64,000 bases of DNA from Thermoanaerobaculia bacterium (GTDB lineage Bacteria > Acidobacteriota > Thermoanaerobaculia > Multivoradales > UBA5704): contig DASUEN010000170.1 in NCBI GenBank assembly GCA_036275055.1, positions 8,118-72,117 of the forward strand, given 5' to 3'. Position 1 is the first letter of the stretch; each line of letters starts with the position of its first letter. The notes beneath the pieces were generated by a model, which saw only the letters and a list, made by a program, of their open reading frames with translations, did no database searches and was not told where the DNA came from. Positions 5,131 through 58,332 of the stretch are shown here, piece by piece. The position numbers were made by a program, and so were the translations under genes.

Positions 5131-5703
5131 GTGGCCATGACCCGCAGCGACAACCTTTACGCCCTGCCCGAAGGGCTTCCCGTCCCGGTGGACGACGGCG
5201 CCTGCGATCATCTCCCCGGGCTCCGCATTCCCGCGCTCCTCCTCCCCTCGACCTCCGGAGGCCGGGTCGATCTGTCATCGTTACCAGGTCGGACCGTCGT
5301 CTACCTCTATCCTCACACCGGCCGGCCCGACCGCGACGCCCTCCCTGGCTGGAACGACATTCCCGGCGCCCGCGGCTGCACGCCGCAGACCTGCGCTTTC
5401 CGCGACCATCACGCCGAGCTGCGCGGTCTCGGGGCCGCCGTCTTCGGTCTCAGCACGCAGAATACGGACTATCAGAAAGAAGCCGTCGAGCGTCTCCACC
5501 TCCCCTTCGAGCTGCTGAGCGACGAGCGCTTCGAGCTGATCGAGGCACTGCGCCTCCCCACCTTCGAGCTGGCGGGGATTCGCTTCGTGAAAAGGATCAC
5601 GCTCATCCTGCGGGACGGCGTGATCGAAAAGGTTTTCTATCCGGTGTTCCCGCCCGATCAGAACGCCGAAGAGGTGGCGGCGTGGTTGCGGGAGAATCCA
5701 TGA
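5131..5703 (+). CDS. peroxiredoxin (Bcp/AhpC-TSA family)
   Basis: ..GARGCTPQTCAFRDH.. peroxidatic/resolving Cys block; thioredoxin-fold length. Confidence 0.8.
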   Translation: MAMTRSDNLYALPEGLPVPVDDGACDHLPGLRIPALLLPSTSGGRVDLSSLPGRTVVYLYPHTGRPDRDALPGWNDIPGARGCTPQTCAFRDHHAELRGLGAAVFGLSTQNTDYQKEAVERLHLPFELLSDERFELIEALRLPTFELAGIRFVKRITLILRDGVIEKVFYPVFPPDQNAEEVAAWLRENP

Positions 5704-10105: not shown

Positions 10106-11395
10106 TCATCCCGCCACGATCTGCCGCAGCAGCGCGATGTTGTCGCGGTGTCCCGTCAAGCGGGCGGTGACTTTGCCGCGGATGGGATAGCCCAGCAGGT
10201 AGAGGTCGCCCACGATGTCGAGGATCTTGTGGCGCACGAACTCGTCGGGGAAACGGAGCTCGGTGTTGATCACTTCGTCCTCGCCCACCAGGATGAAGTT
10301 ATCGAGCCGGCCGCCGGAGCCCAGCCCCAGCTCGTTGAGCATCTTCAGGTCCTTCATGAAGCCGAAGGTGCGGGCCGGGGCGATCTCCCGCTTGTAGTCC
10401 TCGGCCGAGGTGAGGGTGAAGTCGAACGACTGCTCCCCCACCGGCGGCGGATAGCGCAGAAGATAAGAGACGGAGAAGCGGTCCGCGGGCTCGATCGCCA
10501 AAACCTTTTCACCCGATCCCACCTCGTAGCGCCGGTCGATCACCACCTCGCGCTGGAGCTCGTCCTGCTCGGTGACGCCGATCTCTTCGAGGATCTTGCA
10601 GAACTCCAGGGCCGAGCCGTCGAGCACCGGGATCTCGCCGTGCACCTTGATCAGCAGGTTCCCCACGCCGTACGCGTGCAGCGCGGAGAGGAGGTGCTCG
10701 ACGGTGCGGATGCTCTCGCCGTCGCGGGAGAGGGTGGTGGCATAGTCCGTTTCGGCCACGGCGCGGACGTGGGCCGGGATCTCCAGCCCCGTGGGGAGGG
10801 AGACGAAATGAATGCCGCTGTTTTCCGGCAGGGGCTGGAGGACCATGCCGGTGCGCTGGCCCGAGTGGAGGCCGAGGCCGTAGACCACGGTCGATTGGCG
10901 GATCGTCCGCTGCCGCCGGCCGGTGCCGGCGAGGAGGGGCAGGGCGGGAGCGGCCTCGAAGCGGCGCTCGCCTTCCGCACGGTCGGCGTGGCGCTCCGGC
11001 CGGGCTGCGGCCTCCCCCGCCTCCAGCGAGCGCTTCCACGCCAGGGCTCCCGTGGCGGCGTCCACGGCCCGCTTGTAGGAGAGGGGCTTTTCCAGGTAGT
11101 CGAAGGCCCCCATCTTGATGGCTTTGACGGCGGTCGCCGTGGTGCCGTGGCCGGACATCATGACCACGGCCGCCGCCGGATCGGCCTCGCGCAGGGCCTG
11201 CAGGGTCTCGAGGCCGTCGCGGTCCGCCAGCCAGATGTCGAGGAACACCACGTCCGGCCGCTTCTCACCGTAGAGGGTCAGGGCCTCTTCGCCGCTGGTG
11301 GTGACGAGGGTCGAATAACCTTCGTCGGAAAAGATCCCCCCCAGGGTGGAAAGGATCCCCGGCTCGTCGTCCACGATCAGAATCAGCTCGGGCAT
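10106..11395 (-). CDS. lpxC: response-regulator receiver domain fused to UDP-3-O-acyl-GlcNAc deacetylase (REC::LpxC)
   Basis: REC: LIVDDEP.., ..VVFLDIWLADRDG.., ..FDYLEKP. LpxC: ..TVEHLLSALHAYGV.., ..FVRHKILDIVGDLYLLG.., ..LTGHRDN.. Confidence 0.85.
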   Translation of the reverse strand: MPELILIVDDEPGILSTLGGIFSDEGYSTLVTTSGEEALTLYGEKRPDVVFLDIWLADRDGLETLQALREADPAAAVVMMSGHGTTATAVKAIKMGAFDYLEKPLSYKRAVDAATGALAWKRSLEAGEAAARPERHADRAEGERRFEAAPALPLLAGTGRRQRTIRQSTVVYGLGLHSGQRTGMVLQPLPENSGIHFVSLPTGLEIPAHVRAVAETDYATTLSRDGESIRTVEHLLSALHAYGVGNLLIKVHGEIPVLDGSALEFCKILEEIGVTEQDELQREVVIDRRYEVGSGEKVLAIEPADRFSVSYLLRYPPPVGEQSFDFTLTSAEDYKREIAPARTFGFMKDLKMLNELGLGSGGRLDNFILVGEDEVINTELRFPDEFVRHKILDIVGDLYLLGYPIRGKVTARLTGHRDNIALLRQIVAG

Positions 11396-23944: not shown

Positions 23945-24496
23945 TCAGCCTTCGAGTTCGCGGATTCTCTCCTTGGCTTCTTCGATCTGTTTCCTCAGAG
24001 CAAACTTCTGAGAGGAGTCAGCGGCGATAGCCTCTTGCTCTTGGAAAAAAGCCAACTTCTCCTTCCAAAGAGTCAGCGCGCGGCCCTTTGGACTCTCCTC
24101 GGCGGTGGGCGAGATGGTTGCTGGTCTACTTGCATGTGCATCGTGGCCTAGTAGATCAGCGATTTCGCCGGCGAGAGAGGAGAGGTCCTTCTCGATCTGG
24201 ACCGCGCTGCCGTCGGCAAGCGGCCGGCCGTCCTTGGGCCGGGCCTGGATCCCCGCCAGCCAGGCAACTCGTTGCCAAGGGCAAGGCCAAAGGATCAAAG
24301 GGATGATTCGCAAGCCTTCTTCTGCTCGGCGCTCAAGCAGACGGGGCACTTCGGTGCCGCGGATGAAACCGGAGGTCAAAAAGTCGGCCGAGATTAGTAG
24401 AACGGCGATACCGGCTCCCCCCATGGCTACCTCGATCTCGGTTTGCCAAGCATCGCCTGCGGCGATCCTTCGGTCATCCCAGACTTCGAAGACCCC
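23945..24496 (-). CDS. remainder of the TIR domain plus coiled-coil tail (frame B, continuation of 24427..27699)
   Basis: Frame is open from 24496: GVFEVWDDRRIAAGDAWQTEIEVAMGGAGIAVLLISADFLTSGFIRGTEVP..RIIPLILWPCPW.. then ..LWKEKLAFFQEQEAIAADSSQKFALRKQIEEAKERIRELEG. Confidence 0.75.
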   Translation of the reverse strand, partial: GVFEVWDDRRIAAGDAWQTEIEVAMGGAGIAVLLISADFLTSGFIRGTEVPRLLERRAEEGLRIIPLILWPCPWQRVAWLAGIQARPKDGRPLADGSAVQIEKDLSSLAGEIADLLGHDAHASRPATISPTAEESPKGRALTLWKEKLAFFQEQEAIAADSSQKFALRKQIEEAKERIRELEG

Positions 24497-27400
24497 TCAA
24501 GCTCCAGGACACGCAACTGGCGGAGGAGCTTATCTTTCCATACCTCGTCTTGGTGGCTATAGCTAATGAAGACTTTGGGCTTCGATCGCTCAGTCATAGG
24601 GTGCCGATCTCCTTTAGTCAATGGAACCGAATGCAAGGCAACATGCGTCATAGCGCTGTGGACGAAACTCGAGAGGCGGAGAGACTCGCCAGGTTGTATT
24701 GCAGACCCTTTTGCTACAGTTAGGACCGCCTCTCGGCCCAGCCGGCGGTAGCTCTCGAACTGCGCCTCGCTGCTCCACGACTCGATCTTCTCCTGAGGAA
24801 ACTCAGGGTAGGACCGGGCATAGGTGACTATTTCGTAAGGCTCGCTGCCACAAAGCATCGGCTTGAAAAAGATTAGTGTGCCATCCCTCGCCCCGGGTCC
24901 ATCAACTGCGGAGTAGCGAATTAGGCCGAGTGCGCAGTAACGAGGCGCACTGTTTGCGTTTGTGAACGAAGGCATCTGCTCTTTCAGGTCGATTGGCACC
25001 CCGGTCTCAACCTGCGTCCTTTGCAGGGCTATGACCAATGCCTCGTAGGTGTAGTTCGGGTCGTATCCCGCGTCGCATACAACAATTACTCGGCAACGGC
25101 GTCGGATCATTTCGGTTAGGCCGAGGGGGTCGAGCCGGGCTCCGCTCGATAGTTTTATATAAGGGGTCTGTTCGCCCGCCGTACCGAAGGCATGCCTTAG
25201 TAGCAGGGTCACGCGGTTCCTCGGCCCGTTATAGCGGGAGGATCGACGCCCGCAAGGCCCCGGATTGCCCATCCATCTCCCAATCCCCACACTCAAAATC
25301 GCGAGCGCAAACCTGAAGACTGGTGGTTGGTATGGCTCCGCATCCACTCCCGCGATCGCCGTTGTCCGCTCCAAGGACAGTCCCTGCTCTCCGCCGTAGA
25401 CCTGGGTTCGCCGGTAGCCGAGCCCCGCGCTACCGCAGTGCAGTGGAGACGCCGTGAAATTCTCTAGCCGGCGTTCATTCCAAGAGAGTTCGCCTACATC
25501 CATTACCTCCATTGCCATTTGAGTCAACAGTAGAGGCCGGTTACGCTGCAGGTCGTGGAGATAAAGAGGGTCCGTTGGACCTGTACTCGAGTTCAGGCCG
25601 CGAAGTCGGTGGCTGGCAGCGAGATAAGCACGGGCAACGCGCTCCCGCAACATCATCTGAACCGAAAACCGGCTACCACTGGCCAAACGCCCTAGCGCAA
25701 TGCCAAACCCTAAAAGGGAGAGAATGACAATCAGTAAGAAGAACGTATATAAGGAAAGTTCCCGTAGTTCCCGTGGATAGTAATAGTAGAAGGCATAGCC
25801 ACTCCAACTTGCGGGGAACGCACGAAGATAGCTCTGTGCACAAATCGAAATGAAGGCGAGGAATGTTCCCCAGAAAAAGGGGGGCACGACGACGAGCAGG
25901 AGTCTTCTCCCCAGGAGGCCTATTGCTGCCCTTTCCTTCTGTCCTGCACCTGGCCGGCAGAGCCAGAGCATCACTCCGCCGAAGCCCACTGCAGCCATCA
26001 GCAGAGCGCACTTCTTTAACAAGGTCCAAAATATACTTGGCGCGTAGAATGCTAGAATGCTAGCGCTCGACCAAAGAAGAATGGCAACGGCGATCCACTT
26101 CGACCAACGGAGCCACAACTCGCGGCTGACGGTAGCAACCTCGGTGGGATAGCGACCTCCTTCAGCGAGGCCGGTCACGGCAACGAACACCGCATTGCCG
26201 ATCAACATGGGTCCAAGCACAAGCCCAGGTCCCAGGATTTCGTAAAGCGAATGGGGGGCGCTTACGATCCAGGGAAGCCAGCCTTTGAGGGCCAAGGTGT
26301 ATATCGCCATCTCCACCACGCCGCGGCAAAGCAGAGCGACGAGATCCACCCAAAGAAAAGAGAGTTGGCGCCCAAACGGCCATCTTTGGGCTAGGACCCC
26401 GGCCACCAGAGCCACCATTGGCACAACGATTGACCACATCAGGCAGCACAGCAGCACATCAGGTGTGTACAGCACGTGCCCGGGATGTCGACTGCTGAAA
26501 AAAGAGACAGAAAGAATAATTAGAGACGTGGCCAAAAGCGTCAAATGGAGCGCTAGTTTGAGGCGCAGTGGTCGGGGCAGAATCCTCTCCAGGGATTTGT
26601 GCACCGGGTGGGCACTGACTCGCAGGGAGTTCATGAAGAAAAGTGCAACGCCGTGGAGGCAGATAGCTATCCACCAAAGACTCTTTGGGCTCGGAATCAG
26701 TTCTTGCATCCAAATTGGCTTAGAGATGGTAAGAAGCGGCACCACCAGAGCCGCGGCTAGGATCGGCAGGAGGACGAACAGGTCGAATGCGAAGTCCACC
26801 AAAGACGCCAGGAAATTTCCTTTCTGTGTGAGGACGTTGCGGTGATGGCGCAGGAACCTGACTGCCTCCTCTTCTTGGCTCTCCCCTCCGAGGTCGCTTG
26901 GTATTCTTTGCGCAGTCTGATCAGAGCTTCCAGCTCGGTGGGTCAGAGCGACGAACCAACTTGCGATAAAGCTTCCGCCCGAAACACTCGACAGGTAGTC
27001 GAATCTTGAGAGCAGACCGATCTTAGCTAGACCCTGCATGACTCCGAGACCAAAGATCGCGCCTCGCACCCCGTCCCCTGCTAGGCAAAGCCCAGCAAGG
27101 CCATCCGTGTCAACGTCCTCCGAAGATCGCCTGTGTATAATCCGGCGTAGCGCGGCAAGCCTCTCTTTCTCGTTTGCCCGAGGATCACTGACCATAGAAT
27201 CGGCTGCGAGTTCCACCCTCCAGCGCGGTCGGAGCGCTTCATACTCCTCTCGAAGCACCTCGGCAGCAGTGAGAACCCGATTGACTCCTGCCACTAGGCC
27301 CACCGCGATTCTGCGCGGCTCCGAGCCATAGACAGTAACCTGGATCCTGATCACGGCCTTGGCTTCTTGTCCCTCCTTGCCGCCGCGGCATGCGACAGGG

Positions 27401-27699
27401 ATCGTGACTCGAACTGGCTGCTGGGAGTCGAGCGCTACGATCTTTGCTGCCTCCACCGCAAAGCGAAACAGACCGACCTCCTGTATCGGCTCAACCTCGA
27501 CCCGGAGATCCTTCACCGCTTCCGGTGCACAGCCAACAAGAAGGATGATCTCCCGTCGTTCGTGCCCGCCCTCTATCCCGAGTTCGAACACCACAGGGTC
27601 CGAAACGGCCCTCAGGGAGAAGTTTTGTGTCTCCAAAGGTACCTCCGAAACAAGTATGGCTCTGTGTGAGTGTAACTCACCAGCCAGAGCGTGCAGCAA
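24427..27699 (-). CDS. patatin-like lipase domain split by a polytopic membrane region, then the first part of a TIR domain (frame A of a frameshifted gene)
   Basis: GLCLAGDGVRGAIFGLGVMQGL; FDYLSSVSGGSFIASW; about 10-12 hydrophobic helices; ..RRRCRVIVVCDAGYDPNY..; KVFISYSHQDEVWKDKLLRQLRVLELEG followed by 20 junk codons. Confidence 0.75.
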   Translation of the reverse strand: MLHALAGELHSHRAILVSEVPLETQNFSLRAVSDPVVFELGIEGGHERREIILLVGCAPEAVKDLRVEVEPIQEVGLFRFAVEAAKIVALDSQQPVRVTIPVACRGGKEGQEAKAVIRIQVTVYGSEPRRIAVGLVAGVNRVLTAAEVLREEYEALRPRWRVELAADSMVSDPRANEKERLAALRRIIHRRSSEDVDTDGLAGLCLAGDGVRGAIFGLGVMQGLAKIGLLSRFDYLSSVSGGSFIASWFVALTHRAGSSDQTAQRIPSDLGGESQEEEAVRFLRHHRNVLTQKGNFLASLVDFAFDLFVLLPILAAALVVPLLTISKPIWMQELIPSPKSLWWIAICLHGVALFFMNSLRVSAHPVHKSLERILPRPLRLKLALHLTLLATSLIILSVSFFSSRHPGHVLYTPDVLLCCLMWSIVVPMVALVAGVLAQRWPFGRQLSFLWVDLVALLCRGVVEMAIYTLALKGWLPWIVSAPHSLYEILGPGLVLGPMLIGNAVFVAVTGLAEGGRYPTEVATVSRELWLRWSKWIAVAILLWSSASILAFYAPSIFWTLLKKCALLMAAVGFGGVMLWLCRPGAGQKERAAIGLLGRRLLLVVVPPFFWGTFLAFISICAQSYLRAFPASWSGYAFYYYYPRELRELSLYTFFLLIVILSLLGFGIALGRLASGSRFSVQMMLRERVARAYLAASHRLRGLNSSTGPTDPLYLHDLQRNRPLLLTQMAMEVMDVGELSWNERRLENFTASPLHCGSAGLGYRRTQVYGGEQGLSLERTTAIAGVDAEPYQPPVFRFALAILSVGIGRWMGNPGPCGRRSSRYNGPRNRVTLLLRHAFGTAGEQTPYIKLSSGARLDPLGLTEMIRRRCRVIVVCDAGYDPNYTYEALVIALQRTQVETGVPIDLKEQMPSFTNANSAPRYCALGLIRYSAVDGPGARDGTLIFFKPMLCGSEPYEIVTYARSYPEFPQEKIESWSSEAQFESYRRLGREAVLTVAKGSAIQPGESLRLSSFVHSAMTHVALHSVPLTKGDRHPMTERSKPKVFISYSHQDEVWKDKLLRQLRVLELEGSSKSGMTEGSPQAMLGKPRSR

Positions 27700-39591: not shown

Positions 39592-40566
39592 TTACCACCC
39601 TGTTTGTTGATAGGTTTCACCGCGAGTCGCCCTTTTGTTGTAGAAAAAAGATAGAGCAAAGTTGGCGCAAGGCACCACACAAAGGAGAAAGAAGGTAAGA
39701 ATTGTCAGTTCGTTCGAAGCGGCAGCAGATCCGGTCACTGCACCAACGTGCACCAGTCCAGACAACAGTAGGCTTCGTGAAGTGCCGCGAAAGCTGAGCA
39801 CAGTCAGCCCCAAAGCAACAAGCGTGAGAAAAAAGCCCAGGACCGGGAGCACGAGAAGAAATCCTGGAGGATTTTCCACTTCGACCATGAGGGGAAATAC
39901 CTGGAGAAAGCCGGATACAGCGATCAGCCATAGTAGGGCTAACACGCGCCGGCCGGGTCGAACGAGTGACAGCCAGTTTCCCAGTCGATAGGCGAAGGAG
40001 TTGGGATTTGAGGCGGTCGTACTTGGTACGTCTGCTCCGACCTCCGATACGTTAGGCTTCGGCGTCGCAGATGGCTCCGGTGAGCCTTTGGGTACAATCC
40101 GCTTGAGCTCTTCGAATAAAAGATGCATGTCGGATTTGAGCCGGTCAGAGCGAATCTCGACTGCGTTCAGGCGTACGAATCGAGACAAGTCAGCCGGCAA
40201 TTCCTCGGACCGGGGCATCGCCGTGCCCTCGAGCAGGATCGGAATAATTCGGGATCCGCGCTCCAAGGCCGCCATCAACTCGAGACGGACGAAGTCGCCG
40301 GGATCGTGAAGGCCCCCCGGTTCCCAGTTCCACCCGATCAGTACCAAGACGACGACCGATTCGGCGATGGCTTTGGTAATAGCTTCGACGAAGTCAATTC
40401 CCGCGCCGATGGAGTCAACGTCAATGAAAACACTATCGGTACCGAACTCCTGCTCCAATCGATTGTGGAGAAGGTGGGCAAAAAAAGTGGAGTCAGCACG
40501 ACGATAGCTGATGAAAATTTTGTTGGTCACGGCATGCACCGAATGGCGTGCCTTCCGGAATGTCAT
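39592..40566 (-). CDS. TIR-domain protein with C-terminal 4-TM membrane anchor
   Basis: KIFISYRRADSTFFAHLLHNRLEQEFG..VFIDVDSI..VVVLVLIG..DFVRLELMAALERGSRIIPILLEG. C-terminal helices LALLWLIAVSGFLQVFPLMV, FLLVLPVLGFFLTLVALGLTVL, LLLSGLVHVGAVTG, ILTFFLLCVVPCANFALSFF. Confidence 0.8.
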   Translation of the reverse strand: MTFRKARHSVHAVTNKIFISYRRADSTFFAHLLHNRLEQEFGTDSVFIDVDSIGAGIDFVEAITKAIAESVVVLVLIGWNWEPGGLHDPGDFVRLELMAALERGSRIIPILLEGTAMPRSEELPADLSRFVRLNAVEIRSDRLKSDMHLLFEELKRIVPKGSPEPSATPKPNVSEVGADVPSTTASNPNSFAYRLGNWLSLVRPGRRVLALLWLIAVSGFLQVFPLMVEVENPPGFLLVLPVLGFFLTLVALGLTVLSFRGTSRSLLLSGLVHVGAVTGSAAASNELTILTFFLLCVVPCANFALSFFYNKRATRGETYQQTGW

Positions 40567-52326: not shown

Positions 52327-52809
52327 TCATTCTTCTTCAGCAAGGATTTCAAAAGCTTCCGCAAACGAGACGCTTCGGGTTTCGCGTAATTCGTTCACAA
52401 CCTCGAACGCTCGAAATAGTGCGGCCTTTCCGGCAGGCACCCACTTCCCTGTTGCCCAATCCTCCTGTACCTCAAGGGCGCCAGCACGGCACTCCACGAA
52501 ACGGAGTTTCCCTTCTCGGTAGTCTTTACCGGGCCTTTCGCGGGCCAGTCGAAGCACCTCTTCAGCCTTCAAATCTAATGCCGCGAGAAAAAATGCGTCA
52601 GGATGGAAAGAATGCAGATCAAAACCGAGCCCCAAGAGCTTAATCGCATTGGGCCGTATATACTTAAGAAGGTCTCGAGAGATTTCTTCCCCTATCCCTC
52701 GCTCTACAGATGCGAAAGGGTGAGGAATACCCCGAGGTGTGTAGCCTTCCTGCTTCGCCTCCTCCGGCAATTCATCCGTCTCAATTCGGTTGACTCTCAC
52801 GAATGGCAT
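52327..52809 (-). CDS. hypothetical protein (160 aa), translationally coupled partner of the TIR gene
   Basis: ATG at 52809 lies 13 nt inside the end of the TIR ORF. Low GC. No family recognised. Confidence 0.6.
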   Translation of the reverse strand: MPFVRVNRIETDELPEEAKQEGYTPRGIPHPFASVERGIGEEISRDLLKYIRPNAIKLLGLGFDLHSFHPDAFFLAALDLKAEEVLRLARERPGKDYREGKLRFVECRAGALEVQEDWATGKWVPAGKAALFRAFEVVNELRETRSVSFAEAFEILAEEE

Positions 52810-53813
52810 AATACTCTCAACATTTCGTCCAAATAGCGGTTTATGTTTTCGGCCACCGACGATGTCAGGAGCTTAGGAACGGCAGAGATCCTGCTGCTTC
52901 GCGCTTGATACCCGCAGAAGCCATCGCTCGTCAATATTGTAGTGGCCGTATCCAGGATATTTGACAGCTTAGAACCTCGGACTGAACCCTCGTCAACAAT
53001 CTTCGAAAGACTCAGGTACTCCTCACAGGCTTCGAGAAGCCCCGGCTCACCGACCAACTCCCTAAATGCTGCGTTCAAGCCCTCGAAGTCAAACCAACTC
53101 ACTGGGCCAAGTCTTAACTCGATCGAATAACGTTCCAGAGTGCTATCGACTCCGGACATTGGATTCTCTCTCCAATCTAAAAGCCTGACGTTTGGTCCGT
53201 TGAAAAACACAGCGCCACGCGCCTTGGTCTCGGCTTCCTTTTTGGCGAGAATTTTTTTCATGTGGCCATAGAGCGCAACGGGTGGGTTGAACGGATCGTT
53301 ATCGTAAACTATTTGCACTCGCGAGATATTGTAGAATCTATCGCCGGCTCCGACGAGCCGGATCTCTGGAATATCACGAAACAAGCTATTGCTGGCAAAA
53401 TTCTCGACCGAACCCATTTTGTCATATTCTCTGGCTCTTGAAACAAAGAGCATTCTTGCCGCTTCGTTCTTCAGCTCTGCAAGATTTTGCAGATATTTAA
53501 GATGGCCAACCGGAGCTGGAGGCTTCAGATTGAGTTCGGCAAGCAGGCACCAGATCTCGCGCCTCAATGCCCATGCTATTCCAAGCTCAAATAGTACCCA
53601 CTCTGACTTCAAGCTCTCACGAGAGACAATGACTACAAGATGGGTCGCGCTTCTGACTAACTCTCGAAGTGCCTCTGAGACTGCCTGGCCAGGCACCATA
53701 TTCAGCTCATCCATAAGCACACGAAGACCGACAGCCTCCAGGCATTCTCGTACTTCCTTTGCAAATATGGCGTCCTTGCGTGAATAGCTCAAGAGAAACA
53801 ATGGGGCAGCCAT
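52797..53813 (-). CDS. TIR-domain protein with unassigned 200-aa C-terminal domain
   Basis: LFLLSYSRKDAIFAKEVRECLEAVGLRVLMDELNMVPGQ..THLVVIVSRESLKSEWVLFELGIAWAL... Low GC. Confidence 0.75.
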   Translation of the reverse strand: MAAPLFLLSYSRKDAIFAKEVRECLEAVGLRVLMDELNMVPGQAVSEALRELVRSATHLVVIVSRESLKSEWVLFELGIAWALRREIWCLLAELNLKPPAPVGHLKYLQNLAELKNEAARMLFVSRAREYDKMGSVENFASNSLFRDIPEIRLVGAGDRFYNISRVQIVYDNDPFNPPVALYGHMKKILAKKEAETKARGAVFFNGPNVRLLDWRENPMSGVDSTLERYSIELRLGPVSWFDFEGLNAAFRELVGEPGLLEACEEYLSLSKIVDEGSVRGSKLSNILDTATTILTSDGFCGYQARSSRISAVPKLLTSSVAENINRYLDEMLRVLCHS

Positions 53814-55045: not shown

Positions 55046-55275
55046 CTGCCCCGAAGGGGCAAAGGCATGTAGCCTGGGCGGACGCGAAGCGCTGAGCCCC
55101 GGGAAAAGCCGATCCATCCATCCGTTAAAGCCCTGAAAGGGCGACGGCAGCTCATCGTTCGACAGGACTGCCGCCGCCCCTTCGGGGCTTTAGGGGTTTG
55201 TTGGGCCACATCTACCCGGGGCTGGCAAAAGGCGCCAGCCCCGGGCTACATGCCGTCGCCCCTTCGGGGCTGGCG
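55046..55275. repeat. cluster of REP-like palindromic units (GCCCCTTCGGGGC hairpins with GGGCTACATGCC arms)
   Basis: 55046-55078 is an inverted copy of 55238-55270. A third partial unit lies at 55168-55188. The family resembles the 15241..15382 palindrome. Confidence 0.75.
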
Positions 55276-55334
55276 CAACAGCGCCTTTCTATTTTGTCTC
55301 AGAGCTCGGTGAGAGTCCTCCACGCCGATCTCCG

Positions 55335-55600
55335 AGCCCCTCTTGCCAAACTCCAGATCCTCCAGATCGATCTCCAGGTTGTCCTGGAGGGAGGTCTGGA
55401 GCTTCCAGACCTCGGCGTAGATCCTCCACAGCAAGCTCCAGGTCTTCCTGATCAAGGTCTGGACCCTCTGGACCCTGATGCGGGTCCTCCAGACCTCGGT
55501 CTGGGTCGTCCGCAGCAATCTCCCGGTCATCTGCAGCGAGGTCTGGATCCTCGAGAGCAAGGTCCAAGGCTTCTGGAGCAAGGTCTGGACCGCTTGGAAT
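55335..55600. repeat. degenerate 42-bp tandem repeat (about 5-6 units) built around GGTCTGGA/TCCAGACC
   Basis: GGTCTGGA-like cores at 55456, 55498, 55540 and 55582 (42-bp spacing), plus 55393. On the minus strand this encodes 14-aa repeats (V/I)QT(L/S)L.K.W.LL.R. Confidence 0.75.
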
Positions 55601-55820
55601 TCGATTCAGATTATCTGGCCGGTCTTCGCCAGCACAGAACGACCGAGAGCGAGAATCCCGGCGGAGATCAGCACTTTCCAGATATCCTCTGAGGAGGCTT
55701 TCTCCGCCAGCGGGGAAGGCTGCGGGTTTTGATACGGTCCGCTGCCCGCGTAATAGGTCAAAATCATACAAGGGACCGTCTCTCGCGTCCAGACCTGAAG
55801 CTCATGATCGTGCAGACTGA

Positions 55821-55917
55821 TGGCGGAGAGGGCGGGATTCGAACCCACGCGGCGACTTCGAAAGCCGCCGGCTTCCGGGTAGCAACCGGACACTTTGCCA
55901 GGCTCAGTCACCTCTCC
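55821..55917 (-). tRNA. tRNA-Ser (anticodon GCU), class II, 3'-CCA encoded
   Basis: Acceptor GGAGAGG/CCTCTCC. Anticodon arm TCCGG-TTGCTAC-CCGGA. Long variable arm. T arm GTGGG-TTCGAAT-CCCGC. Confidence 0.88.
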
Positions 55918-55918
55918 A

Positions 55919-55995
55919 TGGTGGCTCCGGTGGGATTCGAACCCACACGGGACGGGTTTTGAAGCCGATGCCTCTGCCGGTTGGGCTACGGAGCC
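55919..55995 (-). tRNA. tRNA of uncertain identity: class-I shape, best-fit anticodon CAA, imperfect anticodon stem, CCA encoded
   Basis: Acceptor GGCTCCG/CGGAGCC-A-CCA. D arm GCCCAACCGGCAGAGGC. T arm GTGGG-TTCGAAT-CCCAC. Anticodon region TCGGC-TTCAAAA-CCCGT forms only 3 central base pairs. Confidence 0.55.
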
Positions 55996-55998
55996 AGG

Positions 55999-56077
55999 TG
56001 GTGCCCCTCCTCGGATTCGAACCGAGAACCTCCGGTTTCTGAGACCGGCGCCTCTGCCAAGATTGGGCTAGAAGGGC
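55999..56077 (-). tRNA. tRNA with Leu anticodon CAG but a 5-nt variable loop (class-I shape), CCA encoded
   Basis: Acceptor GCCCTTC/GAGGGGC-A-CCA. D arm GCCCAATCTTGGCAGAGGC. Anticodon arm CCGGT-CTCAGAA-ACCGG (perfect). Variable loop AGGTT. T arm CTCGG-TTCGAAT-CCGAG. Confidence 0.7.
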
Positions 56078-56132
56078 GTGGTTGGTGGGAGTGGAATACG
56101 CTCCCTTTGGCAAAGAACCAAAACGTGAACGA

Positions 56133-56225
56133 TGGCGGAGGGTGAAGGAGTCGAACCCTCGCCGAGGATCACCCGGCGCCCCGGTTTTCGGGACCGGTTG
56201 CCGCACCATCGCAGCGGCACCCTCC
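56133..56225 (-). tRNA. tRNA-Ser-like (anticodon CGA) with Sec/allo-tRNA-like 8/4 architecture, CCA encoded
   Basis: 8-bp acceptor GGAGGGTG/CACCCTCC. 2-nt linker. 6-bp D stem GCTGCG/TGCGGC with 4-nt loop ATGG. Anticodon arm CCGGT-CCCGAAA-ACCGG (C at position 33). 7-bp variable stem. 4-bp T stem AGGG/CCTT. Confidence 0.7.
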
Positions 56226-56252
56226 GGTACTCTCCGGTACTCTCCAGAATGC

Positions 56253-56288
56253 AAAAAGCCCCCGCGGCTCATCACCGGGGGGCTTTTT
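56253..56288 (-). terminator. rho-independent terminator (bidirectional form) downstream of the metallophosphoesterase::TIR gene
   Basis: AAAAAGCCCCC-gcggctcatcacc-GGGGGGCTTTTT. Confidence 0.7.
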
Positions 56289-56457
56289 GGCGTATAAGCT
56301 GATGGCTCTTCAGGTTACACGTCAATCCCCCTGGCGGTGGCCAGCGAAAGGTAGTAACTTGAAGAGAGTCGCAAGCAGCGCATAGCGAAGTCAGTAAACC
56401 ATGTCGAAGCGCGGATGTCAAGAGGGATTTCGATTCTCTTCGCCGGCAGAGGCCGTT

Positions 56458-58332
56458 TCATGTGAGACCTGCCGCCATCCGCCGCCGTAGGGCTTCCCGG
56501 ACAACCTGGAAGTCATCGTCGAGATAGACCTCGAGCTTGCGGGGCATGAGAACGTCCTGAAGGAAGACGAGAATGTCGTCCACGTGATTGGCAAAATCTT
56601 GGACCAGTTTAAACTCCTTCCAGGACTCGGAGCTGGGCTGGAGATTCGGATTGCGGATCAGGACTCCGAGCTTCACCGCTCGCTCGGACCAGTATTCCAG
56701 GTAGGGCGCCCTTTCCTCGAAGCTTCCGGTCTTCACTTCCGGCAGCATGATTGGCACCAGACGCTGGACCAGGTCGTCGGCTTCGCCCTGGCAGCTCTGC
56801 CAGAGCTTGTAGATCTCGTACATGCAGTAGGAAGATCGGAGGTACTTATTGCTGATCACAGCCACGATGTGATCAGCGTGGGTGAGGCGGCGGATGAATG
56901 CCGAGATCTGCTCCCCGGGGAGGATCTGGTCGCGGTCTCGGACGGGGAGGAAGCCGTCCGCGACGAGAGCCGCACAGAGACCCTCGACGGCCTGCGCACG
57001 GATCCTGCCCTCGGGAGTCTCGTCATCTCCCCAGGCATAGGAGATGAAGACCTCTCGGGGCTTCTCGGGGGGCTTCTCGCCCGGGGTGGGGGCAAGGGGG
57101 GTAGTGCCAGGCTCGGAGGTTTTCCCGGTCGCGCGGGTTTCTGCGGGGCGGTGCTCCCGGCCATCGAAGAAAGTGGCGAAGGCTGCGGCGGGGACCGGCT
57201 TCTCGAGGTCGAGCACGCGGCCGTCGCTTCCCGGTGGCAGGTAAAGGGAAAGCTCCTGCCAATACCCACCCGGCTCCATGGGATCAGGAATGAACGCTCC
57301 ATGTCGCAGCTCACCTTTGGCTCTGGCGCGTGGATCGAAGACAAGGCTCCGGGCGCGGATTTCTTTCTCCCTGGTGTCCAGTGCGATGAGACGCACGGAA
57401 AGCGGCTCGTCTTCGGGTAAATTGTCTGGCGTCAGGCTGAGGCTTCCTGCGGAGAGCACCGCCGCGCGACCCTTGATTCTGCTCTGCCAGTCCCAGCTCT
57501 GCTCGTCTTTGGCATGATGGTGGCCATGAAGGATGAGCTGAACGTGCGAGTCCTCGACGATCGCCCGCAGGCGCTCCTGCCCCTCGAAACCCACAATGTC
57601 GCTCTCATACCGCGCGACCAGCTCCGGGTCCAGCCCCTTCTCCTCCATCTCCTTCCGCCACTTTGCAAGGTTCCCGGGCACGGTGACTCCGGGATTGTGG
57701 TGGACAGTCACGATCTTCAGCCATCCGGATCTCTGCGGGGTCAGCCATTCCGTCATCAACGCTTCGGCCTGTTCGCGGCTCAGGAAACCGACGTGATCGG
57801 CCGGGCGGTGCGACTCCTTCTCGCACGAATTCAGTGCAGCCACGGAGAGGTGGAGATCCGGAAAGTCGTACAGGAAGGCTCCCCGGCCCAAGGGGAGGGC
57901 CACCTCGGCGAGGTCCTTCACGCCGTAGAAGCTGAGGAGGAACTCCTCGTAACGATCCAGTTTCACGGCGTCGAGCCGTTTCCGGAGCTCGGCCTCGTCA
58001 AAGCCCTCCTCTTCCTGATCGGCTGCAACCTTCTTGCAGGCGGACCAGGAGACGTCGTGATTGCCGGGCACGAATACGAACCGCCGGCGGTCGAGCCCAA
58101 GCTCTCCTGCCAGAGCGGCGAGGAACAGCTCCCCTTCCTGGAGCTCCGGAGGCTTGCCGGATTCGGACACGTCGCCGGTCACGGCCACCAGATCGATGCG
58201 GGAGCCCTTGGCGAAGCCCCCCCTTGCCGCTTCGAGATCCTTGAAAAAGGCCTTCCCCAGCTTCGTGAGGTCCTCTCCCTGCAAGGGGCTGTGTGCGCCG
58301 AAGTGAAGGTCGGAGAGATGCAGGATGAGCAT
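56458..58332 (-). CDS. calcineurin-like metallophosphoesterase fused to a C-terminal TIR domain
   Basis: MPE motifs LHLSDLHFG, VTGDVSESG, VPGNHDVSW, VHHNP, LHGHHHAKD. TIR: REVFISYAWGDDE..HIVAVISNKYLRSSYCMYEIYKLWQ. Confidence 0.8.
   Translation of the reverse strand: MLILHLSDLHFGAHSPLQGEDLTKLGKAFFKDLEAARGGFAKGSRIDLVAVTGDVSESGKPPELQEGELFLAALAGELGLDRRRFVFVPGNHDVSWSACKKVAADQEEEGFDEAELRKRLDAVKLDRYEEFLLSFYGVKDLAEVALPLGRGAFLYDFPDLHLSVAALNSCEKESHRPADHVGFLSREQAEALMTEWLTPQRSGWLKIVTVHHNPGVTVPGNLAKWRKEMEEKGLDPELVARYESDIVGFEGQERLRAIVEDSHVQLILHGHHHAKDEQSWDWQSRIKGRAAVLSAGSLSLTPDNLPEDEPLSVRLIALDTREKEIRARSLVFDPRARAKGELRHGAFIPDPMEPGGYWQELSLYLPPGSDGRVLDLEKPVPAAAFATFFDGREHRPAETRATGKTSEPGTTPLAPTPGEKPPEKPREVFISYAWGDDETPEGRIRAQAVEGLCAALVADGFLPVRDRDQILPGEQISAFIRRLTHADHIVAVISNKYLRSSYCMYEIYKLWQSCQGEADDLVQRLVPIMLPEVKTGSFEERAPYLEYWSERAVKLGVLIRNPNLQPSSESWKEFKLVQDFANHVDDILVFLQDVLMPRKLEVYLDDDFQVVREALRRRMAAGLT

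Follow-up and report, generated by a model that had tools for sequence, protein, structure and literature searches.

We describe here a tRNA-Ser(CGA) gene of unusual architecture in a stretch of 64,000 nucleotides from a Thermoanaerobaculia bacterium (contig DASUEN010000170.1; hereafter the window, at its full length). The gene heads a cassette of four tRNA genes for serine and leucine, and upstream of it lie a promoter, a short open reading frame (ORF) packed with serine, leucine and tyrosine codons, and an intrinsic terminator. Serine, leucine and tyrosine are the three bacterial tRNA families with a long variable arm (class II). Taken as a whole, the locus is read here, with somewhat more confidence than doubt, as a serine tRNA within a spare class II cassette that is controlled by an attenuator. 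The kind of tRNA is already known, and the gene is a new member of the (8/4) tRNA-Ser group. What is new is its fixed C33, the class II-only operon with leucine tRNAs of short variable arm and, above all, the apparent leader-peptide attenuator in front of tRNA genes; the leader peptide and the terminator are the most unusual features of the locus. A preliminary description of this DNA had dealt with the tRNA itself and had missed the class II-only cassette, the leader peptide and the terminator.

The tRNA-Ser(CGA) gene is 93 nt long and lies on the minus strand, with its 5′ end at 56225 and its 3′ end at 56133. An 8-bp acceptor stem (GGAGGGUG/CACCCUCC) is followed by a 2-nt CC connector, a D arm of 6 bp, including two G-U pairs, with a 4-nt loop (GCUGCG-AUGG-UGCGGC), and then AA. 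The anticodon arm has 5 bp (CCGGU/ACCGG) and the loop CCCGAAA (C32 C33 C34 G35 A36), followed by GG; the variable arm has 7 bp (CGCCGGG/CUCGGCG) and the loop UGAUC; and the T arm has 4 bp (AGGG/CCUU) and the loop UUCGACU, leading to G73 and an encoded CCA. A check of sequence and pairing found no non-standard pairs in this fold and verified the position, strand and every structural element that the preliminary description had drawn by hand. The U after GG in the D loop corresponds to the Y20 following G18G19 in the (8/4) group. ARAGORN calls the gene tRNA-Ser(cga). It had been conceded beforehand that covariance models might return an ordinary 7/5 tRNA with normal scores. Instead, the general tRNA model RF00005 (threshold 29 bits) does not match the gene, while the three neighbouring tRNAs score 48.7-55.7 bits, and the best model of the Rfam clan is that of tRNA-Sec (RF01852), which reaches 41.1 bits, under its gathering threshold of 47 bits, and aligns the gene with an 8-bp acceptor and a 4-bp T stem. 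Besides a score of at least 29 bits with RF00005, the gene lacks the other marks of a canonical 7/5 class II tRNA-Ser, namely U8, a paired 49:65 and U33.

Folding of the single sequence gives -44.5 kcal/mol for the 8/4 form and -43.7 kcal/mol for a 7/5 form in which G66-C82 replaces G8-C82 and C48-G66. With the two only 0.8 kcal/mol apart in the lone sequence, the architecture can be decided only through relatives. These were collected by blastn against phage genomes, by a pattern scan of IMG/VR for the acceptor stem and by a C33-restricted pattern scan of species genomes. The phage genomes yielded tRNA-Ser genes of about 76% identity, with anticodon CGA in Sphingobium phage Lacusarx, AGA in Streptomyces phage WRightOn and UGA in Salmonella phage Arash, where the gene is unannotated. 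The acceptor stem recurs in 29 viral contigs of IMG/VR, and the C33-restricted scan gave 17 species genomes, comprising six Thermoanaerobaculia, one Ilumatobacteraceae and ten alphaproteobacterial loci. In an alignment of 36 distinct family members (A1), 97.4% of cells are paired under the 8/4 structure and 18 pairs change on both sides. Pair 8:84 is formed in 36/36 members (GC in 34, AU in 2), as is the outer variable-stem pair 48:68, which occurs as four pair types, whereas the 7/5-specific pair 68:84 is unpaired in 22/36. Five D-stem pairs are supported across the family, and the sixth, a G-U pair, occurs in 7/12 orthologues. An independent sample, drawn by a scan that left positions 8 and 82 unconstrained, gave a matching picture: tRNAs with U8 pair 49:65 in 70/72 cases, while those with G8 do so in 9/28 and always have C82. 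The 12 Thermoanaerobaculia orthologues have 96.3% of their cells paired and eight pairs with compensatory changes, four of them in the variable stem. In this set the contested base changes in step with the first variable-stem base (C-G in eight, U-A in four), and no variation is seen in the acceptor stem, the anticodon and T loops or the CCA. The conserved structure together with these compensatory changes points to a conserved 8/4 tRNA under purifying selection for structure. The two connector positions add an observation of their own. They can pair as C9-G47 (56217/56179) and C10-G46 (56216/56180), and position 9:47 is CG in 20 members, GC in 15 and otherwise in 1, a covariation that implies, as far as sequences can tell, an extra 2-bp helix and a four-way junction without unpaired bases.

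Judged from its sequence and its relatives, the gene thus encodes a serine-decoding tRNA of 8/4 architecture, and it is very probably functional, with charging by serine expected from its identity elements. The 8/4 form, the D arm resembling those of tRNA-Sec and allo-tRNAs, and the serine anticodon, all of which had been proposed in the preliminary description, are upheld by the Rfam alignment and by covariation among relatives. The proposed link to the allo-tRNA literature was also correct, as the gene matches the (8/4) tRNA-Ser group that Mukai et al. (Nucleic Acids Res 2017; PMC5389517) reported from phages, proteobacteria and Clostridia and filed under allo-tRNAs; at the level of sequence it has every feature that defines this group. 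It shares with the group the 8-bp acceptor, the 4-bp T stem, the long D stem with a tetraloop, the long variable arm, G73 and a serine anticodon, of which the long arm and G73 (or U73) form the identity set of seryl-tRNA synthetase (SerRS). It differs in its carrier, a member of the Thermoanaerobaculia, given that the acidobacterial allo-tRNAs described earlier had non-serine anticodons; in its fixed C33, a feature absent from the main text of PMC5389517; and in its position, with a leader peptide and a terminator ahead of it, in an operon of class II tRNAs only. A recoding role, which had also been considered, does not hold up: the serine anticodon CGA means that this is not a recoding tRNA, and the subgroup to which it belongs had already been described in phages and proteobacteria. 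With bacterial tRNA-Sec (RF01852) the gene has in common the 8-bp acceptor, the 6-bp D stem with its 4-nt loop, the long variable arm and G73; its anticodon, however, is CGA rather than UCA, and its 8/4 branch of 12 bp is of the EF-Tu type, in contrast to the 8/5 branch of 13 bp used by SelB. It is very improbable that the gene is nevertheless an ordinary tRNA-Ser of the 7/5 type, its connector then being 3 nt long, or a tRNA related to selenocysteine or recoding. The small energy difference in the single sequence and the tRNA-Sec model as top match would fit this idea, but the broken 7/5 pair and the covariation of the contested base, the anticodon, the branch length and the sub-threshold score all oppose it, as does the lack of selA, selB and selD among the ORFs of the 64-kb window scanned with Pfam. 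As a separate observation, two viral relatives (L014, 513-596, and L029, 476-559) combine the GGAGGGUG/CACCCUCC acceptor and G73 with the anticodons GCA (Cys) and UAA (Leu), respectively, and are, by their sequences, candidate phage-carried missense allo-tRNAs.

U33 is near-invariant in cellular elongator tRNAs. The possibility that C33 is a sequencing error, which the preliminary description had raised, can be set aside because C33 is kept in every orthologue: it occurs in all 12 from Thermoanaerobaculia and also in alphaproteobacteria and phage contigs. A metagenome scan that took the upstream terminator and the 5′ end of the tRNA as anchors and left position 33 free recovered seven true cassettes, and the loop was CCCGAAA in 7/7. 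Near-identical viral tRNA bodies carry CTTGAAA (L011) or CCTGAAA (L025) and differ at position 33 alone; such pairs indicate that U33 and C33 interchange repeatedly, so that in the 8/4 serine scaffold U33 appears to be freely swapped for C. In a census of 835 unique ARAGORN tRNAs from all collected loci (L001-L150 and L153-L213, mostly phage-derived), C33 was found in 19/42 family members, including 5/29 viral ones, and in 54/787 other tRNAs (about 7%), most of them from viral contigs. The latter include Leu(GAG), Ile(GAU), Val(GAC/UAC), Ser(GCU), Thr, Pro, Gln, Ala, His, Tyr and Met; the Leu(GAG) tRNA of sister cassettes is itself a C33 tRNA. Given the near-invariance of U33 in cells, this frequency in phage-type tRNAs is noteworthy. 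In the open-access papers searched, including the main text of Mukai et al., C33 in bacterial or phage tRNAs is not discussed.

The cassette runs, according to ARAGORN, from the 8/4 Ser(CGA) gene through Leu(CAG) and Leu(CAA) to a canonical Ser(GCU). The Thermoanaerobaculia cassettes contain serine, leucine and tyrosine tRNAs only, and in every complete one Ser(CGA) comes first and Ser(GCU) last. Between them stand zero to four genes drawn from a pool of Tyr(GUA), Leu(CAG), Leu(GAG) and Leu(CAA): none in L144, Leu(GAG) in L150 and L155, Tyr in L139, Leu(CAG) and Leu(CAA) in the window and L213, three leucine genes in L134, L149, L156 and L165, and Tyr with three leucine genes in L181. The interior genes are evidently dispensable. 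The window cassette has no Leu(GAG), and since CTC makes up 43% of leucine codons in the genes of the window, other copies must exist in the genome. Both leucine tRNAs of the window combine A73 and a leucine-type D arm with a variable region of just 5 nt, and the anticodon-stem mismatches of Leu(CAA) recur in L134, L149 and L138. A long arm is normal for bacterial tRNA-Leu. Short-arm forms with the anticodons CAG, CAA, GAG, UAA and UAG, each with A73, a leucine-type D arm, a variable region of 4-5 nt and a length of 74-79 nt, were observed in the window, L134, L149, L156, L165, L181, L006, L015 and L143; nearly all leucine tRNAs of these arrays are of this kind, the Leu(GAG) of Lacusarx (L001) having 85 nt, and the conserved mismatches of the Leu(CAA) copies flank a 3-bp anticodon stem. 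Our search of open-access papers for short-arm tRNA-Leu in phages found none.

Upstream of the tRNA, about 190 nt are conserved above the level of the flanking genes (alignment A2). This region opens with a sigma-70-type promoter, whose -35 element TTGACA is invariant and whose -10 element (TTTACT or TTTAAT) and spacing are conserved; the promoter is our reading of the alignment and was not listed by a consensus promoter scanner. An ATG follows 9 nt past the -10 element, so that the message would be leaderless or nearly so. It opens an ORF that spans 20-24 codons in 12-13 loci, 8-12 of them for serine, leucine or tyrosine. Across these loci the ATG, its fixed distance to the -10 element and the stop are conserved, insertions and deletions are in-frame 3-nt changes, and substitutions fall at wobble positions (TAC/TAT, CTC/CTT/CTA, GCC/GCT, ATT/ATC, stop TAA/TAG). 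The terminator behind it has a GC-rich stem of 9-10 bp and U5 and ends 27 nt before the tRNA, a spacer that leaves no room for a second promoter. It is invariant in close orthologues and shows the compensatory change GG/CC to AG/CU in the L150/L155/L156 group. Within the spacer lie the two 10-bp near-copies of the tRNA 5′ end, GGAGAGTACC, which the preliminary description had rightly noted directly upstream of the tRNA. The motif is present twice in the window, L149, L165 and L181 and once in L134, L144 and L213, and varies in sequence as well; these near-copies look like slippage duplications of the junction. A covariance model of the leader element (R1) matches in 12 Thermoanaerobaculia loci only.

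The window leader has ten serine, leucine and tyrosine codons (TTG CTC TCT TCA AGT TAC TAC CTT TCG CTG), and the commonest run, shared by five species, is TTG CTY TCT TCA AGT TAT CTA TCG CTG. By standard wobble rules, the nine codons of the latter call on nine isoacceptors, one each: Leu CAA, GAG, UAG and CAG; Ser GGA, UGA, GCU and CGA; and Tyr GUA. Together they make up the full class II set to be expected where a genome makes no use of TTA. In the genes of the window TCT (3%), TCA (2%), AGT (1%), CTA (1%), TTG (5%) and CTT (5%) are rare choices for their amino acids, while TAT, TCG and CTG are not in this 1-5% class. Leader and cassette also vary together in places: L139 has no leucine tRNA and no leucine codon in its leader, and L155, whose only leucine tRNA is Leu(GAG), has the three leucine codons CTC, CTT and CTT.

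RNAalifold found the strand UCGCUGGCCACCGCCAGGGGG in the 3′ part of the ORF to be complementary to the 5′ arm and loop of the terminator; the alternative is a local hairpin, CUGGC-CACC-GCCAG. An internal leader hairpin, like the terminator, shows compensatory changes. A translating ribosome was mimicked by refolding the RNA codon by codon, each time with everything from the 5′ end to 10 nt beyond the A-site codon masked. For the window leader, terminator loss is predicted at 0.67-0.74 with the A site on codons 4-8 (L R L S S) and at 0 from codon 14 to the stop, against about 0.01 in free RNA. The peak of loss lies over the serine/leucine/tyrosine run, reaching up to 0.99 in L144 and L138, and L139 behaves alike. 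An extended 20-bp antiterminator is not upheld as a proven helix: the L150/L155 group compensates in the terminator and the local hairpin, not across the antiterminator. With the arrangement of promoter, ORF and terminator, the masked folding makes it probable that a translated leader gates the cassette, its translation and the read-through being the steps we infer. The features of the locus are listed in Table 1.

Table 1. Features of the tRNA-Ser(CGA) locus in the window
Feature	Position	Strand	Evidence
Sigma-70-type promoter: TTGACA (56421-56416), 17 nt, TTTACT (56398-56393), with an A/T-rich stretch before it	56393..56421	-	alignment A2
Leader ORF MRCLRLSSSYYLSLATARGIDV*, 22 codons + stop	56315..56383	-	translation; in-frame conservation in 12-13 loci
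Candidate antiterminator strand UCGCUGGCCACCGCCAGGGGG, 3′ part of the ORF	56327..56347	-	RNAalifold; masked-ribosome folding
Intrinsic terminator GCCCCCCGG UGAUGAG CCGCGGGGGC (56283-56258) + UUUUU (56257-56253)	56253..56283	-	terminator scan
Two tandem near-copies of the tRNA 5′ end, GGAGAGTACC	56226..56245	-	sequence; alignment A2
(8/4) tRNA-Ser(CGA), C33, G73, encoded CCA; first gene of the cassette	56133..56225	-	ARAGORN; RF01852; covariation
tRNA-Leu(CAG), A73, leucine-type D arm, 5-nt variable region (class I-like)	55999..56077	-	ARAGORN; RF00005 55.7 bits; orthologues
tRNA-Leu(CAA), class I-like, conserved mismatches flanking the anticodon stem	55919..55995	-	ARAGORN; RF00005 48.7 bits
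tRNA-Ser(GCU), canonical 7/5 class II; last gene of the cassette	55821..55917	-	ARAGORN; RF00005 53.5 bits

How the locus may work can be outlined as follows. SerRS would recognise the 8/4 tRNA by G73 and the long variable arm and charge it, EF-Tu would carry it on account of its 12-bp branch, and it would read UCG as serine. The operon would be transcribed from the upstream consensus promoter, and the near-leaderless transcript would first encode the peptide packed with serine, leucine and tyrosine. As long as tRNAs for these amino acids are plentiful, the ribosome would reach the stop and cover the G-rich strand, the terminator would form and the cassette would stay off. If a class II tRNA were scarce or damaged, the ribosome would stall in the serine/leucine/tyrosine run, the downstream strand would pair with the C-run of the terminator, and RNA polymerase would read through into the tRNA genes. 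The cassette would then supply spare decoders for the most used serine, leucine and tyrosine codons, and, being altered in architecture (the 8/4 branch, C33, leucine tRNAs without a long arm), its tRNAs would be spared by whatever had put the ordinary class II tRNAs out of action. Serine, leucine and tyrosine have no common biosynthetic pathway. What they share is only the class II structure of their tRNAs, and the sensor therefore looks built for tRNA availability and not for amino-acid supply.

In its layout the leader resembles the leader-peptide attenuators of trp, leu, his, thr, ilv, pheA and pheST, in which a short ORF with a run of regulatory codons precedes an intrinsic terminator and a strand in the 3′ part of the ORF is able to pair with the terminator 5′ arm. 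It differs from them in that the regulated genes are four tRNAs instead of biosynthetic enzymes or synthetases, that the codons mix three metabolically unrelated amino acids sharing only the class II structure of their tRNAs, and that the message is leaderless-like. No report of leader-peptide control of tRNA operons was found in the open-access papers searched, and a prior description may nonetheless exist. T-box riboswitches likewise use a leader with a choice between terminator and antiterminator to report tRNA status, and the UGGCCACCGC of the leader resembles the T-box motif UGGNACCGC. However, no Stem I or specifier loop is found here, and sensing would instead use the translating ribosome. 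A T-box reading of the leader was tried and dropped, as 55700-56400 has no RF00230 match at E up to 10 and no specifier architecture; nor does any Rfam family of known small RNAs or riboswitches rise above noise in this interval.

Unrelated mini-ORFs rich in serine, leucine and tyrosine precede class II-only tRNA clusters in other lineages as well, namely in L140 (Hyphomonadaceae, MFALRLHLLRYLSRSSS), L147 (Rhizomicrobium, MPMNTRLPLHSSSYSS) and the viral contigs L007 (MIVAADTRSSSSRSRSSLGRYLALRLR) and L012 (MRWRDYHYRSSSASS), and several Alphaproteobacteria have a mini-ORF MSSDSSS... that runs into the tRNA. The recurrence was quantified as the maximum number of serine, leucine and tyrosine codons in a stop-free window of ten codons, in any frame, within 150 nt upstream of a cluster. 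Counts of at least 8 occur for 15/30 class II-only clusters versus 6/364 other clusters, eleven of the 15 being non-independent Thermoanaerobaculia copies. The leader element itself, sought in the phage and alphaproteobacterial loci with R1, is found in none of them, where unrelated mini-ORFs stand in its place. In L136, L141, L142, L145 and L146 (about 40 nt upstream of tRNA-Ser(GCU)) and in L137 (1760-1808) the mini-ORF has a GGAG ribosome-binding site. The alphaproteobacterial mini-ORF (ATG TCA TCT GAC AGC TCA TCA...) enters the 5′ end of tRNA-Ser(GCU) directly, with no terminator between, so that its mechanism, if it is regulatory, must differ from the attenuator of the window.

Several points weigh against control of a spare cassette by a translated leader. 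Antitermination is predicted to be weak in L134 (0.1-0.3) and to last only briefly in L155 and L156; the extended antiterminator shows no covariation, and in L150 and L155 its complementarity ends with the G-run. The leader of L144 keeps leucine and tyrosine codons despite a Ser-Ser cassette, and that of L150 has one CTG. In this GC-rich DNA the two remaining frames are mostly free of stops too, and most leaders have no Shine-Dalgarno sequence, so that their translation rests on the assumption of a leaderless message. A strong terminator stands between the sole visible promoter and the tRNA, and without read-through the genes would be nearly silent. C33 breaks the U-turn base and could weaken ribosome binding. 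The canonical Ser(CGA), Leu and Tyr genes that a spare cassette presupposes are placed elsewhere in the genome by deduction, not by sight, and among the scanned ORFs of the window there is no tRNA-targeting toxin (PIN/VapC, DUF1814/MenT, HEPN or Schlafen), only TIR-domain proteins having turned up.

The main rival is a housekeeping role, in which the 8/4 tRNA would be the only tRNA-Ser(CGA) of the cell and Ser(GCU) its only reader of AGY codons, the attenuator would provide homeostatic feedback on supply, and toxins and phages would have no part. Synteny of the locus between species, the presence of Ser(CGA) and Ser(GCU) in every cassette, a strong, consensus-like promoter with an A/T-rich stretch upstream, and cassette anticodons that read the most used codons (UCG 34%, AGC 28%, CTG 46%, TAC 73%) would all be explained by a housekeeping operon. 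Yet the interior leucine and tyrosine genes come and go among close relatives, other copies of Leu(GAG) must exist, and just six Thermoanaerobaculia species representatives match a pattern that is invariant in all known copies. Moreover, distant carriers hold leader and cassette in different contexts, one of them beside a serine recombinase, and the tRNAs are phage-like rather than specific to Acidobacteria. We regard such a role as the less likely explanation, while giving it real weight. A smaller chance falls to the upstream element being an independent small RNA gene made of the promoter, about 130 nt and the terminator, with the cassette transcribed otherwise and the serine/leucine/tyrosine frame a by-product of RNA structure. 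Its helices are conserved with some covariation, and the missing Shine-Dalgarno sequences, the mostly open other frames and the confinement of R1 matches to Thermoanaerobaculia would suit a structured RNA. What makes this unlikely is a reading frame whose ATG and stop are conserved, whose start keeps a fixed spacing to the -10 element and which shows 3-nt in-frame indels and wobble changes, the rare leader codons that cover each class II isoacceptor once, the same codon bias in unrelated sequences upstream of class II cassettes of other phyla and viral contigs, and a 27-nt spacer that could not hold another promoter. It is more improbable still that the tRNA is unused in translation, being either a phage remnant in decay or a tRNA-like RNA that acts as a decoy or regulator, as has been suggested for many copies of allo-tRNA(UAU). 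C33 is unusual, the Ser(GCU) partners have decayed in L145 and L148, and inactive allo-tRNAs have been reported near toxin-antitoxin systems (Mukai et al., PMC5389517), but the SerRS identity elements are present and the stems are intact in the 12 orthologues, with their compensatory changes and their invariant CCA, acceptor stem and anticodon and T loops.

If the attenuator-controlled spare cassette is accepted, one may ask what it is spared for. VapC toxins cleave serine tRNAs at the anticodon, and in phage tRNAs mutations of the anticodon loop prevent cleavage (PMC10264068); eukaryotic SLFN11 is cited in PMC13462974 as favouring type II tRNAs. The tRNAs of the cassette deviate in exactly the features that are read by known tRNA-directed enzymes. 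Like the counter-defence tRNAs of phages (van den Berg et al. 2023, PMC10264068; Azam et al. 2024; Burman et al. 2024), which are proposed or shown to survive tRNA-targeting nucleases, they have anticodon loops unlike those of the host, and the (8/4) Ser family, abundant in phage tRNA arrays, combines phage-array carriage with a non-standard anticodon loop as expected of phage-type nuclease-evading tRNAs. The copy described here differs from these in being chromosomal and vertically inherited, in having its whole architecture altered and not the loop alone, and in an expression that, from the folding model, appears conditional on ribosome stalling. Its ancestry is of the phage type, and in the Thermoanaerobaculia lineage it is a stable chromosomal gene. 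That the cassette is a toxin-resistant spare is a tentative proposal, in which the resistance is the inferred part. At least as tentative is the idea of an inducible class II tRNA rescue module in bacteria and phages, whose leader would call the roll of the class II tRNAs and, upon stalling, release restructured tRNAs (8/4 Ser with C33, short-arm Leu) that withstand attack, for instance from enzymes directed at the long variable arm or at the anticodon loop.

The tRNA-Ser(CGA) gene brings the (8/4) tRNA-Ser group to a new phylum. The combination of the leader with a cassette confined to serine, leucine and tyrosine tRNAs offers a testable answer both to the question of why genomes and phages keep structurally deviant tRNAs and to that of how cells might sense the loss of tRNA function. 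If the proposed control is true, this would be the first tRNA operon under ribosome-mediated attenuation and a direct sensor of tRNA integrity, not of amino-acid supply. It would add attenuation to the toolkit of tRNA homeostasis and to the arms race around tRNA-targeting toxins, and would provide synthetic biology with a compact natural sensor of decoding capacity and with orthogonal-looking tRNA scaffolds.

Concerning its surroundings, the tRNA had been placed in a mobile or defence patch. It is true that TIR-domain genes flank it, but cassette and leader occupy the same chromosomal site in three other species. The flanking Methyltransf_28 and PfkB genes are common to L134, L144 and L149, with 80-85% amino-acid identity, which indicates vertical inheritance of the locus in the group formed with the window, and the adjoining TIR-phosphoesterase gene (56458-58332) is an insertion specific to the window. 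The more distant carriers have leader and cassette in other genomic contexts, including the one beside a serine recombinase. In Alphaproteobacteria the Ser(GCU)-Ser(CGA) pair adjoins uvrD in several metagenome-assembled genomes, one copy lies in an Ancylobacter prophage, and the Ser(GCU) partner has decayed in two loci, L145 and L148. A search of 51.6-56.3 kb for an att-site repeat of tRNA ends or an integrase gave nothing convincing, and a duplicated att site with an integrase around the window cassette was rejected accordingly, there being neither a convincing direct repeat nor an integrase. In L149, about 550 nt downstream of the cassette (5421-5481), there is a partial second junction of a Leu(CAA) 3′ end and a Ser(GCU) 5′ half, with 85% identity to window positions 55865-55925, which may be an insertion scar at a tRNA.

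Four TIR-domain genes lie in the 64 kb (23945-24424, 39592-40566, 52797-53813 and 56458-58332), one of which is a fusion with a calcineurin-like phosphoesterase. The analysis recognised no complete defence system of a known kind. A ThsB-like TIR gene stands beside a 1090-aa patatin-like protein (24427-27699) in an island of low GC content (57%) at about 23.4-29 kb. Some 550 nt downstream of the cassette, an Acido-Lenti-1 RNA motif (RF01687, 39.6 bits, threshold 37) occupies 55215-55271 on the plus strand, with a second copy of its 3′ hairpin at 55169-55189, 82 nt upstream of the motif. A repeat with a period of 21 nt and at least six units (55355-55598) is found inside a possible ORF of 111 codons on the minus strand (55246-55581), which has no Pfam or PADLOC match. 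Finally, the LpxC protein (UDP-3-O-acyl-GlcNAc deacetylase) encoded at 10106-11395 on the minus strand carries an N-terminal response-regulator receiver domain, an unusual fusion.

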